NCBI GenBank assembly: GCA_963721455.1
Contig: CAVRJG010000046.1
Coordinates: forward strand, 26,719-90,718
DNA length: 64,000 bases
Source: an uncultured Methanosarcinaceae archaeon
GTDB lineage: Archaea > Halobacteriota > Methanosarcinia > Methanosarcinales > Methanosarcinaceae
Reading direction: 5' to 3'
Position numbers and translations under genes: made by a program. The notes under the pieces are model-generated. The model saw only the letters and a program-made list of their open reading frames with translations, was not told the origin of the DNA and made no database searches. Positions 3,342 through 49,189 of the stretch are shown piece by piece (positions within the stretch are counted from its first letter, which is position 1; every line of letters starts with the position of its first letter).

Positions 3342-4409
3342 TTAACATTCATCAAGCATGAAAGCCCTGGGCCTTATGATCCTTTTCTTCTCATACTGGT
3401 CAAAGCAGTGAGCTATCCAGCCTGAAACCCTGCCGATTGCAAAGATGGATGTTGCAAGTTGAGGGGGGATATCCATATACTTGTAAATAACTGCCGAGTA
3501 GAAGTCTACGTTCGGATAAATTGGTTTTCCTTTTTTCTCTACAAGTTCACGGATAACAGTGTTTTCGATTGCTTCGGCTGTTTCGTACCAGTGCATATCC
3601 CCTTTTGCTTCTGCGAGTTGCCTGGAAAGCTGCTTGAATATCGTGCCCCTGGGGTCATAAGTCTTGTATACTCGGTGCCCGAAGCCCATGATCTTTTCTT
3701 TCTTTGCGATCTTTTCGAGGACAAATTTCTCTGCATTTTCCGGACAGGCGATTTTTTCGATCATGTTCATGACTTCTGACCTTGCCCCTCCATGCAGGGG
3801 GCCTTTAAGGGTGCAGAGCCCGGAGACAACAGCTGAGTACAGGTCTGAAAGGGTGGAAGCGGTAACTCTTGAAGAGAAAGTGGAAGCATTTAGCTCGTGT
3901 TCGGCACTGAGGATAAAGTCTTTTTCCATGACCTCAGCTTCCAGCTGACTTGGTTTGCTTCCTCTTATCATGTACAGGAAGTTAGCTCCGTGGGAGAGGG
4001 ATTTATCAGGGGGTACAGGTTCTTTTCCATTTGCCACTCTGTAGTACGAAGCAACTATGGTTGGGATCTTGGCAATTAACCGTATGGCTTTTCTCAGATT
4101 TCCTTCTGGAGAGCTGTCGTTAATGTCCGGGTCGAATTGTGATATGAAAGAAACAATTGTACGCAGCGCTTCCATAGAGTCAATATTGAAATTGCACATG
4201 CGGATAATGTCCATTACTTCTTTGTTGATTTCACGCTCCCCATGCAGGCGGGATGAATATTCGGCAAGCTCCTGATCTCCAGGGAGTTCTCCCAGGATAA
4301 GCAGATAGGATACTGCATCGTAGGGAAGCTCAACCAGCTGATTAATGTCTATTTCCCTGTATTTCAGAGTGCCCTCTAACCCGTCTATGAAACATATATT
4401 TTTACTCAT
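3342..4409 (-). CDS. gltA: Citrate synthase
   Basis: EHELNAST, GPLHGGA, IMGFGHRVYK.YDPR and YPNVDFY motifs. Confidence 0.93.
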   Translation of the reverse strand: MSKNICFIDGLEGTLKYREIDINQLVELPYDAVSYLLILGELPGDQELAEYSSRLHGEREINKEVMDIIRMCNFNIDSMEALRTIVSFISQFDPDINDSSPEGNLRKAIRLIAKIPTIVASYYRVANGKEPVPPDKSLSHGANFLYMIRGSKPSQLEAEVMEKDFILSAEHELNASTFSSRVTASTLSDLYSAVVSGLCTLKGPLHGGARSEVMNMIEKIACPENAEKFVLEKIAKKEKIMGFGHRVYKTYDPRGTIFKQLSRQLAEAKGDMHWYETAEAIENTVIRELVEKKGKPIYPNVDFYSAVIYKYMDIPPQLATSIFAIGRVSGWIAHCFDQYEKKRIIRPRAFMLDEC

Positions 4410-47397: not shown

Positions 47398-47463
47398 CGT
47401 TTCTGAAATATATTACCGTTTATATATTGCCGTTTCTGAAATATATTACCGTTTATATATTGC
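47398..47463. repeat. Perfect 33-bp tandem duplication containing a TATA-like box
   Basis: cgtttctgaaatatattaccgtttatatattgc occurs at 47398-47430 and 47431-47463. Confidence 0.85.
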
Positions 47464-47832
47464 CATTGTATCGACATACAAATAAATAAACTTTTACTTC
47501 GGTTTATACTGTTTATCTCTCTTTTTGCCGGGGGAATGGCTCTTTTCTTCCTCTCCACGCAAGTTAACTTGAATTCAAATGATCTTTTACTTCTATACTT
47601 ATGAGCGGAAATATTTACACTGCATCCATTACAGAAAAGATTTACACTTTACTGAATTCGCGAGCAAGATTCATTAAAACAAGGATTAAAACAAAATAAA
47701 GCGGGGAGAGCTGAAAGATTTAACCAATAACGAACTTAACCAGATCTTCCAGGATGAAGATGGAAACAAACAGTTCAAAAAATACCGGAACTGGATTATA
47801 GCTATATCAAGAAGTAAGGAGATACCCTATTT

Positions 47833-48045
47833 ATGGTTTTATTGGACGACAGCAAACCATATAAAATAAATTTTAATTTAATTTGTATGAGATGCAAGCA
47901 TTTTCACATAGAGGATGTGAAACTCCATACATGCGATGCGTTCCCGGACGGTATCCCTGATGAAATATGGCGGGGAGACAATGACCATAAAAAGCCGAAT
48001 CCTGGAGATCATGGAATACAATTCGAGCAAATATCACAAGACTAA
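47833..48045 (+). CDS. Small Cys/His protein (CxxC...CDAFPDGIP...[11 protein letters not shown]), cassette 1; putative immunity protein
   Basis: 70-aa ORF preceded by AAGGAG; 52/70 identical to the cassette-3 gene. Confidence 0.75.
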   Translation: MVLLDDSKPYKINFNLICMRCKHFHIEDVKLHTCDAFPDGIPDEIWRGDNDHKKPNPGDHGIQFEQISQD

Positions 48046-48124
48046 AATTTTTTATAGAACATCTTTCATTTACTTATTGCAGTTATCGAAACACTATCCT
48101 GGAAAAATTTCACCCACTTTAAGA

Positions 48125-48180
48125 TAAGGGCCCCTGAGTTGACCGGGGGCTTGGATTCTCTTCCTTTCTCTCTTCTTTTC
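48125..48180 (+). terminator. GC hairpin followed by a pyrimidine tract at the end of cassette 1
   Basis: gcccc-tgagttgaccg-ggggc followed by ttctcttcctttctctcttcttttc. Confidence 0.45.
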
Positions 48181-48222
48181 CGAATTCGCGAGCAAGATCC
48201 ACTAAAACAAGGATTGAAACAC

Positions 48223-48372
48223 ACCGCCGAGCATGAGGTATTATATCAAAAAGGACAGCATTTAAAATTATTAGGAGTTGAAGGAGTTGATAGGGTCGGC
48301 ATGATAGGAGATGACGGCACATGGGTTGCCAGCACAAACAAAATAAGACTGTTATACTGTAAGCTAATTTAA
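48223..48372 (+). pseudogene. 3' stub of a probable ADP-ribosyltransferase-like toxin gene (cassette 2)
   Basis: Begins right after repeat 2 and reads TAEHEVLYQKGQHLKLLGVE...IRLLYCKLI*. The E-x-E-V-L motif plus terminal beta-strands match VIP2/C3-like ART tails. Confidence 0.5.
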
Positions 48373-48436
48373 ACAGATCAACATTATATATACCCGAATC
48401 GTCCTGGAAAGCAGACAAACAGGAGGAAAAGCAGCC

Positions 48437-48577
48437 ATGCCAAAAGATGAGAACGGTCGCGAGATACCGAGCCGGTTTTATATTGATGACGGCGACCTGC
48501 GATTTATTGACGCGGCGCCCTTAACAGAAGAGGACCGGGCCGAGCTTAAGCGTATGAAAGAACTTATGGAAAAATAA
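48437..48577 (+). CDS. 46-aa acidic small protein (cassette 2); putative antitoxin
   Basis: AGGAGG RBS at 48421-48426; MPKDENGREIPSRFYIDDGDLRFIDAAPLTEEDRAELKRMKELMEK*. Too short for the ORF track. Confidence 0.65.
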   Translation: MPKDENGREIPSRFYIDDGDLRFIDAAPLTEEDRAELKRMKELMEK

Positions 48578-48733
48578 AGGATTTAAAGAAGTGAGTACAG
48601 GAGCGCGAAAAAACAGTGGAAGAATTAAACTTTAAAAAGTATTCGGAAGAGACATTCGCGAGCAAGATCCACTAAAACAAGGATTGAAACCTGAACTACT
48701 CATTTATCAAGAAGTAAAAGGGATATTATACAT

Positions 48734-48946
48734 ATGGTTCTATTAGATGATCGCGAATTATATAGGATCAATTTTAATCTGATTTGTATTAAATGCAAGC
48801 ACTATCACATAGAAAATACAAACCTCAACTCCTGTGATGCGTTCCCGGATGGGATCCCGGATGAGATCTGGAGGGGGGACAATGACCACATAAAACCGTA
48901 TCCTGGGGATCACGGTATCCAATTCGAGCCGGAAGAAGAAGACTAA
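48734..48946 (+). CDS. Small Cys/His protein, cassette 3; homologue of the cassette-1 gene
   Basis: 70-aa ORF with [23 protein letters not shown] and [11 protein letters not shown]. Confidence 0.75.
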
Positions 48947-49189
48947 AATTGTTTATAGAATATCTTTCATTTATTTGTTGCAGTTATTGAAACACTATCC
49001 TGGAAAAATTCTACACATTTTAAGAATTCGCGAGCAAGATCCATTAAAACAAAGATTAAAACGTAATCCTTTTTTAAGATAATTTCAGGTTACTTTTTTC
49101 AGTTTCTTTTATTTTTGCAGCTTCTAATGGTTAAAAAAGATTTATTATGCCTTTAATTTCTATTTTCTTCCAAAATATTACTTTTTTAA

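Follow-up and report, generated by a model that had tools for sequence, protein, structure and literature searches.

Integrons hold short, promoter-less genes between recombination repeats, mostly in one direction and behind a common upstream promoter, and polymorphic toxin systems reportedly leave orphan immunity gene arrays, said to have been described by Zhang and colleagues in 2012. Here we analyzed a 64,000-nucleotide (nt) stretch of DNA from an uncultured Methanosarcinaceae archaeon (GenBank assembly GCA_963721455.1, contig CAVRJG010000046.1, positions 26,719 to 90,718), which we call the window, meaning that whole stretch. Its positions 47656 to 49062 are a remnant CRISPR array, the three spacers of which are 335- to 491-nt pieces of mobile elements; two of these pieces hold the same small gene, encoding a protein of 70 amino acids (aa), directly after the last codons of a viral MuF gene. 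As in orphan immunity arrays, small genes of this family occur without a toxin partner and often as tandem paralogues. Unlike those arrays, in which the partner is a secreted bacterial toxin, the genes here are held by CRISPR repeats and the partner is a virion protein. The locus also differs from integrons in that its repeats are those of CRISPR, that there is no integrase or attC and that expression of the inserts is only putative.

The MuF polymorphic toxin–immunity modules of temperate phages (Jamet et al. 2017, PMC5576092) are similarly organized. As far as the available text of that paper goes, both consist of a MuF protein with a variable enzyme end followed by an open reading frame (ORF) of small size, and both include ADP-ribosyltransferase (ART) ends; here, however, one conserved small family follows three unrelated ends, the nearest ends are RadC/JAB-like, the hosts include archaea and copies lie inside CRISPR arrays. 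MuF–effector fusions are also in print (PMC5512222, PMC9503650). In the accessible sections of the work on polyvalent proteins (Iyer et al. 2017, PMC5512222), MuF is fused, as in our loci, to RadC-type JAB, zincin-like peptidase or ART domains, which are predicted to be packed into the head and injected, and the RadC/JAB-type ends figure as injected effectors, possibly with nucleic-acid-directed activity, rather than as toxins. Unlike in those sections, a conserved downstream small protein and a link to CRISPR are features of the loci described here. Finally, a temperate phage integrates into the CRISPR repeats of Streptococcus pyogenes by way of an 8-bp attachment (att) site (Varble et al., 10.1101/2020.10.09.333658). 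Phage DNA lies between CRISPR repeats in that case as in ours, but the available portion of that report concerns a whole prophage, a fixed att site and a benefit to the phage, whereas we found fragments of 0.3 to 1.9 kb with variable ends and one gene. Our literature search, which covered publications other than subscription journals and supplements, returned no description of gene-bearing long spacers or of the 70-aa family in arrays, the report on prophages in CRISPR repeats being its sole related result.

Results

A MuF Tail and a Whole Small Gene between CRISPR Repeats

Four 37-nt repeats lie on the + strand of the window (Table 1). The inner two are identical and the outer two each carry three mismatches to a 36-nt search pattern, which matched four times in the whole window and not once in 100 shuffles of it. 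All four exceed the gathering score of the Rfam family CRISPR-DR7, the repeats of which form normal arrays in relatives. The repeats end 3′ in ATTGAAAC, so that we take the + strand to be the usual sense of CRISPR RNA (crRNA). The region singled out in the initial annotation, 47693 to 49025, runs from the end of the first repeat to the start of the last. The uniform short spacers (∼25 to 50 nt) by which CRISPR arrays are recognized are not found here, the spacers being about 10 times the normal length. Short metagenome contigs span the junctions of repeat 2 with insert 2 and of insert 2 with repeat 3.

Over 300 nt, inserts 1 and 3 share 78% identity, and their 70-aa proteins are 74% identical in amino-acid sequence. 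Both copies match the phage protein family PHROG 33375 (E = 5.9e-09 and 3.2e-09). On Methanosarcinales viral contigs, homologues are directly preceded by MuF proteins of ∼480 aa that end in ...DLDYSYIEEKT or ...ELDYSFIEEKS. Because these viral ends match the stubs ...PELDYSYIKK* and LNYSFIKK* of inserts 1 and 3, we assign the stubs as the last codons of MuF genes; in the window, the MuF gene is represented by such codons only. A profile of the viral C-terminal domain placed the insert-1 stub at its last positions (186 to 201 of 202), with only 2.7 bits for so short a stub. Upstream of it, at 47693 to 47760, another frame (KIKRGELKDLTNNELNQIFQDE, KIKRGELKDL...) resembles by eye the preceding part of the viral protein, which suggests a frameshift in the stub; the domain profile gave no support to this upstream frame. 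Thus, the last 18 MuF codons, possibly ∼40, are retained in insert 1 and the last 8 in insert 3.

The presence of the same whole gene in two of three inserts with different boundaries is more than chance. Judged by their sequences, inserts 1 and 3 appear to be separate captures from the head-gene module of related tailed viruses of Methanosarcinales. We considered whether insert 3 could be an in situ duplicate of insert 1 and rejected this, given 78% identity between the inserts next to inner repeats with no difference at all, and insert boundaries that differ at both ends. An environmental variant of insert 1 is 95% identical to it, with nine listed differences within the ORF; by codons read by eye, six of the nine fall on third positions and one more is a synonymous first position.

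The 70-Residue Protein Follows MuF Proteins in Viruses

The 70-aa family comprises 168 database clusters at E ≤ 0.001 (among 170 candidates), and pattern scans recovered relatives in 363 stretches of species-representative genomes and at least 493 stretches of viral contigs. It was present in 29 of 284 Methanosarcinales, 27 of 301 Armatimonadota and 4 of 401 cyanobacterial genomes sampled. Its members are 45 to 80% identical across two domains of life, and the 3′ 100 nt of the gene retain 72 to 80% DNA identity even between archaeal and bacterial copies. A conserved C-x2-C-x-H...C...H cluster is probably a zinc site. The protein falls in no Pfam family, a wide VIA search gave no identity for it, and its matches in the ESM Atlas are only unnamed, mostly viral clusters.

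We surveyed the neighbors of the gene in the best 80 genome and best 80 viral stretches (loci carry L numbers below). A profile refound the gene at all 160 loci, 143 of which had an upstream ORF on the same strand by the survey rule. The initial annotation had stated that proteins of the type CxxC...AFPDGIP...GDHGIQFE often follow MuF genes and had proposed tabulating what lies upstream. The table bore this out, mostly in viral loci: a MuF-type gene, recognized by Pfam or by C-terminal class, was directly upstream at 63 of the 75 viral loci and 31 of the 76 genome loci that could be assessed. Specifically, 60 of the 143 upstream ORFs matched the Pfam MuF or minor-capsid-2 families (PF04233/PF06152) at E ≤ 0.001. 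The gap from MuF to the small gene was −4 to +24 nt in most adjacent cases, frequently a 4-nt overlap, and the order in a named phage was portal, MuF, small gene, virion-morphogenesis gene. Inteins or Hint domains were seen in the upstream MuF-type genes of five loci (L104, L109, L128, L131 and L147).

To classify the MuF ends, we clustered the last 230 residues of the 101 upstream ORFs that were at least 150 aa long and ended no more than 80 nt from the small gene. This gave a JAB-like group of 62, an HExxH zincin-like group of 23, an ART group of 6 and 10 singletons. The residues E...HxH-x7-S-x2-D were invariant in 36 sequences of the JAB-like group; an E...HxH...S..D motif was found in 52 of the 143 upstream ORFs, 104 to 123 residues from the end in 51 of them. 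The JAB-like domain had no sequence match in Pfam or the PDB. Its model has a JAB fold with a predicted local distance difference test (pLDDT) score of 90.5, and the top Foldseek match was RadC (2qlc; probability 0.98, E = 6e-3), followed by AMSH, JAMM1 and Cap3, all with weak E-values. On the strength of the motif and this model, the domain upstream of the window's nearest relatives is predicted to be a RadC/JAB-like metalloenzyme domain. The zincin-like group combines HExxH with a downstream E-x-F-A-E motif and matches ATLF weakly. ART ends were assigned by Pfam at L068, L122, L152, L153, L162 and L168, with weaker ART/PARP matches at L169 and L143. In viruses, the small protein almost always stands after MuF proteins that end in an enzyme domain.

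The Same Gene in or beside Other CRISPR Arrays

Among the 80 genome loci, a generic array scan found five with arrays; among the 80 viral loci it found none. With further loci fetched from Methanosarcinales (36), Armatimonadota (20) and other groups (5), some places being represented twice, the total including the window came to 11 copies in or beside arrays in eight archaeal and bacterial genomes, with at least eight repeat sequences. At L035, in a Methanosarcinales metagenome-assembled genome (MAG), csm6, cas1 and cas2 are followed by six non-DR7 repeats enclosing five spacers of 34 to 37 nt, then by a 505-nt spacer in which 43 intact codons of a MuF tail precede the whole gene and a further 112 nt, and then by the last repeat. 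L212, in a Chthonomonadaceae bacterium, has a 301-nt spacer nearly filled by the whole gene, and a further copy in a 1.5-kb gap between two blocks of the same array. Two cyanobacterial arrays hold longer MuF remnants. At L066, 19 perfect repeats are followed by 1887 nt, comprising the last 310 aa of a MuF–JAB protein and the whole small gene, and by a degenerate repeat; the contig of L080 opens with the last bases of a repeat, continues with a 53-codon zincin-class MuF tail and the whole gene, and resumes its array at the repeat at position 537. At L231, a zincin-class tail and the whole gene lie between two DR7-like repeats spaced 1780 nt apart, and in one Blastocatellia genome two copies (L044 and L273) each abut the end of a different array.

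Eight copies are flanked by repeats on both sides, one left repeat being inferred. They keep 43 to 973 nt upstream of the start codon and 20 to 1401 nt downstream of the stop, and in all eight the ORF is whole; seven of the eight are in the sense orientation. All conserved Cys and His residues are kept in the embedded copies. Thus, the pattern of MuF tail plus whole gene recurs across domains of life and is not a quirk of the array in the window. The DR7 repeat itself, sought with up to seven mismatches, did not occur in the 160 homologue loci, and the 86 normal spacers of the arrays, compared with all fetched loci, gave self matches only.

Copies Outside Arrays

A MuF-type neighbor was absent from 45 of the 76 assessable genome loci, which therefore represent copies without the partner gene. 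Some of these are tandem sets of diverged copies: six in an Armatimonadota genome (L249, G316:C81, 413 to 2991, unit ∼375 nt), four, as profile matches only, in a cyanobacterium (L270, 2502 to 4138) and three in a Dehalococcoidales MAG (L054, 3402 to 4815, 557-nt units). At L249 and L054 the repeated unit is the gene plus a spacer region. Tandem pairs occur in Methanosarcina (G164:C2 and G153:C79) and, directly after MuF, in the prophage-like loci L250 and L251. In Methanosarcina hadiensis (L017, 3986 to 4201), a stand-alone copy lies between the genes for the R and S subunits of a type I restriction system, alongside a DUF3644/restriction endonuclease (REase)-like gene and an Mrr-type nuclease gene.

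Insert 2 Carries Another Small Gene

Insert 2 represents a third capture event, with a different small gene from a different type of element. Its 46-aa ORF has a GGAGG box upstream, and the DNA similarity of the insert to two related loci is confined to this gene. The initial annotation had read a start-less stub followed by a complete small gene in all three inserts. This holds for inserts 1 and 3; in insert 2 the complete gene stands and the stub does not, in view of the DNA similarity and of an exhaustive HMMER search with the TAEHEVL...YCKLI* frame, which returned two weak matches, each with six to eight repeated stretches. Nor does the 46-aa gene have the MuF neighbor foreseen for it: its only longer relative lies on a 6.2-kb metagenome contig beside an ORF for an 850-aa primase–helicase-like protein. 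Apart from that contig, the family has a lone copy in genome G017, and its single viral-contig match is weak. The G017 copy (L178, G017:C3, 1938 to 2800) stands beside small ORFs that by eye resemble toxin–antitoxin genes, one of them short and ribbon-helix-helix-like, another of zinc-finger type.

Elsewhere, too, long spacers hold other cargo. In relative G001, an otherwise normal-looking array with the repeat found in the window has a 564-nt spacer (L183, G001:C252, 1532 to 2095) with a complete sense ORF for 94 aa (1696 to 1977) that includes a hydrophobic stretch, is membrane-protein-like and matched nothing in Pfam or PADLOC. A second long spacer at L080 (805 to 1163, 359 nt) holds a different complete sense ORF for 94 aa (819 to 1100), preceded by a GGAG box and likewise without a match in Pfam or PADLOC.

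The Locus in Its Genome and in Relatives

The genes on either side of the array encode a solute symporter (− strand) and a molybdate-binding protein (+ strand). The block as a whole is absent from the same intergenic region of relative G008 and, as seen at its left junction, from relative G006; relative G016 retains one degenerate repeat at the site of repeat 4. The conserved intergenic region contains, immediately upstream of the array at positions 47398 to 47463, a 33-nt unit that is exactly duplicated in tandem, with TTTATATA (TATA-box-like) in both copies; in relatives the unit is single-copy. Transcription of the array, or of the divergent symporter gene, could be driven by this duplication.

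The assembly to which the window belongs comprises 73 contigs and is 98.5% complete. It yielded no match to Cas1, Cas2 or Cas6_C, the cas families searched for, whereas control genomes did. Its repeat-like copies number just 22 and are scattered, several separated by gene-sized gaps. Partly degenerate copies of the same repeat occur at C33:49242-52114, C64:62-726 and 4365-4401, and C41:47867-49393, with start-to-start gaps of 766, 1922, 557 and 1490 nt that surround complete genes of cellular type; among these are a cupin-like gene for 132 aa and a gene for 424 aa, both of which run antisense to the repeats.

Table 1. Positions of the repeats, inserts and genes of the array in the window
Feature	Position	Strand	Basis or remark
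Block absent from the same intergenic region of G008, approximate extent	47603..49084		Both junctions aligned
CRISPR repeat 1, degenerate (3 mismatches)	47656..47692	+	CRISPR-DR7, 43 bits vs. cut-off 37
Insert 1, 491-nt giant spacer, piece of a viral head-gene module	47693..48183	+	
Start-less stub WKQTVQKIPELDYSYIKK*, C-terminal end of MuF–JAB gene	47761..47817	+	
70-aa Cys/His gene, copy 1, complete	47833..48045	+	PHROG 33375, no Pfam family
CRISPR repeat 2, consensus	48184..48220	+	CRISPR-DR7, 56.5 bits
Insert 2, 433-nt giant spacer, not related to the other two inserts	48221..48653	+	
Open frame TAEHEVL...YCKLI*	48223..48372	+	No support as gene remnant
46-aa gene, complete	48437..48577	+	Family of 9 clusters; no Pfam or PHROG match
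CRISPR repeat 3, consensus	48654..48690	+	Pattern and CRISPR-DR7
Insert 3, giant spacer of 335 nt, homologous to insert 1, different ends	48691..49025	+	
Stub LNYSFIKK*, last 8 codons of MuF–JAB gene	48691..48717	+	
70-aa Cys/His gene, copy 2, complete	48734..48946	+	
CRISPR repeat 4, degenerate (3 mismatches)	49026..49062	+	Pattern and CRISPR-DR7

Discussion

The account that we favor, tentatively and at a little short of an even chance, is that hosts keep this gene because its product, a partner of MuF proteins in the virion, serves them as an antidote or decoy. Where insert ends vary but the ORF between them is always complete, selection for that ORF is the usual cause. When the bias toward the sense orientation, the orphan copies in tandem and the copy in a defense island are also taken into account, retention by the host for function is the best single reading. 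To the observed anatomy, homologies, neighbor statistics and recurrence in arrays, this reading would add expression, binding and a benefit to the host. An array would capture a fragment of a virus head module that holds the MuF tail and the whole 70-aa gene, and the gene would be expressed from transcripts running through the array. The product, made ahead of infection, would then bind the virion MuF protein of an incoming virus, and would thereby either neutralize the injected enzyme as an antidote or, as an assembly partner present at the wrong time, disturb head assembly. Binding to MuF is the most economical mechanism because the MuF protein is the sole feature common to all viral neighbors. 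On a broader view, CRISPR arrays would be capture-and-hold sites for whole small genes: fragments of 0.3 to 2 kb would enter between repeats, and those with a complete gene in the sense orientation that is of use against the donor virus would be kept and read from the array transcript. We regard this generalization as possible but doubtful.

Several observations weigh against host retention. No RNA run was listed as containing the stretch of the window, and a genome without a Cas6_C match makes repeat-guided processing of a transcript unlikely here. The sense bias is weak (one-sided P = 0.035 for seven of eight, the cases not being independent), the copy at L231 is antisense, and at L248 only the 3′ half of the gene is present, directly after the last repeat. 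Because our search for the other arrays started from this very gene, their recurrence is partly a matter of ascertainment. Giant spacers also hold other content, as in insert 2, the 564-nt spacer of G001, the second long spacer of L080 and the C33 locus of the same genome, where repeats enclose antisense genes as a long spacer with other cargo. The 70-aa protein itself had no PADLOC match, no sequence-profile match in the PDB and no Foldseek match to a PDB fold, and its model is of moderate quality (pLDDT 72.7). Finally, the occurrence of one conserved small protein after three unrelated domains argues against a classical cognate antidote.

Some of these points would be expected if the inserts were neutral by-products, that is, oversize spacers that arose by faulty Cas1–Cas2 integration or by recombination between spacers and viruses in a decaying array. 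The gene would then recur as the most conserved and most targeted stretch, and its proteins would do nothing for the host. The high identity of its 3′ end between archaea and bacteria would make it a durable CRISPR target, and the long spacers of this or related arrays that hold other cargo, the genome without Cas1, Cas2 or Cas6_C matches and the cut copy at L248 are all consistent with such an origin. However, recombination by way of spacers in the gene should leave partial genes, yet all eight flanked copies are whole with variable ends, seven of them are sense and the conserved residues of the embedded copies are intact. Moreover, the stand-alone tandem copies indicate that hosts keep the gene in other settings too. 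We therefore see a neutral origin as a serious possibility, though on balance an improbable one.

The initial annotation had gone further than host retention, taking the host copies for orphan immunity genes; in this reading, the 70-aa protein would be the cognate immunity protein of a MuF toxin and would block its active site. The position of the small gene immediately downstream of MuF genes with C-terminal enzyme domains, as in MuF toxins, fits this proposal, and so do the six ART ends and the resemblance of the MuF-less tandem paralogue sets to orphan immunity arrays. A cognate immunity protein would be expected to differ from one toxin domain to the next. Here, members of a single family, 45 to 80% identical, follow JAB-like, zincin-like and ART ends alike, which speaks against immunity specific to one toxin, and tandem duplicates also stand directly after MuF (L250 and L251). 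The upstream tail, too, is no recognized toxin: in the nearest relatives of the window it is the RadC/JAB-like end, with its invariant motif and its fold matches to RadC, AMSH and Cap3, a type of end that the accessible sections of PMC5512222 present as an injected effector rather than a toxin. What survives of the proposal is that hosts keep the small gene without the big one, as the MuF-less and in-array copies attest; the premise that the big partner ends in a toxin has less in its favor. Cognate immunity is accordingly unlikely in our judgment.

Site-specific integration of proviruses into CRISPR repeats, followed by deletion of most of their DNA, has a precedent in Streptococcus pyogenes (10.1101/2020.10.09.333658). 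We rejected it as an explanation because the insert boundaries vary. Both ends differ from case to case, with the left end within the MuF gene, unlike an att site; the DNA that was kept derives from midway along the head-gene module and not from the integrase-proximal end; there is no integrase nearby; and at least eight different repeat sequences are involved. Such an origin is very improbable. Equally far-fetched is a benefit to the virus, by an insert that disables or distracts the array or by a protein that is a left-behind anti-CRISPR: the association of the gene with arrays and the lack of Cas1, Cas2 and Cas6_C matches in the genome of the window would suit it, but the array of L035, insert included, still stands beside cas1, cas2 and csm6 with normal leader-side spacers, and in viruses the gene lies in the late head-gene module rather than in an early anti-defense position.

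Even if the inserts are neutral, gene-sized spacers bear on how Cas1–Cas2 or recombination controls spacer length. If hosts do retain the gene for its function, CRISPR loci would store working genes as well as guides, adding a protein-based layer to acquired immunity, and the MuF-partner gene would be the first recurrent cargo of this kind, in Archaea and Bacteria. The very widespread family PHROG 33375 would thereby gain its first functional handle, as a partner of MuF effectors, and these loci would provide a test bed for the role of injected MuF enzyme domains.

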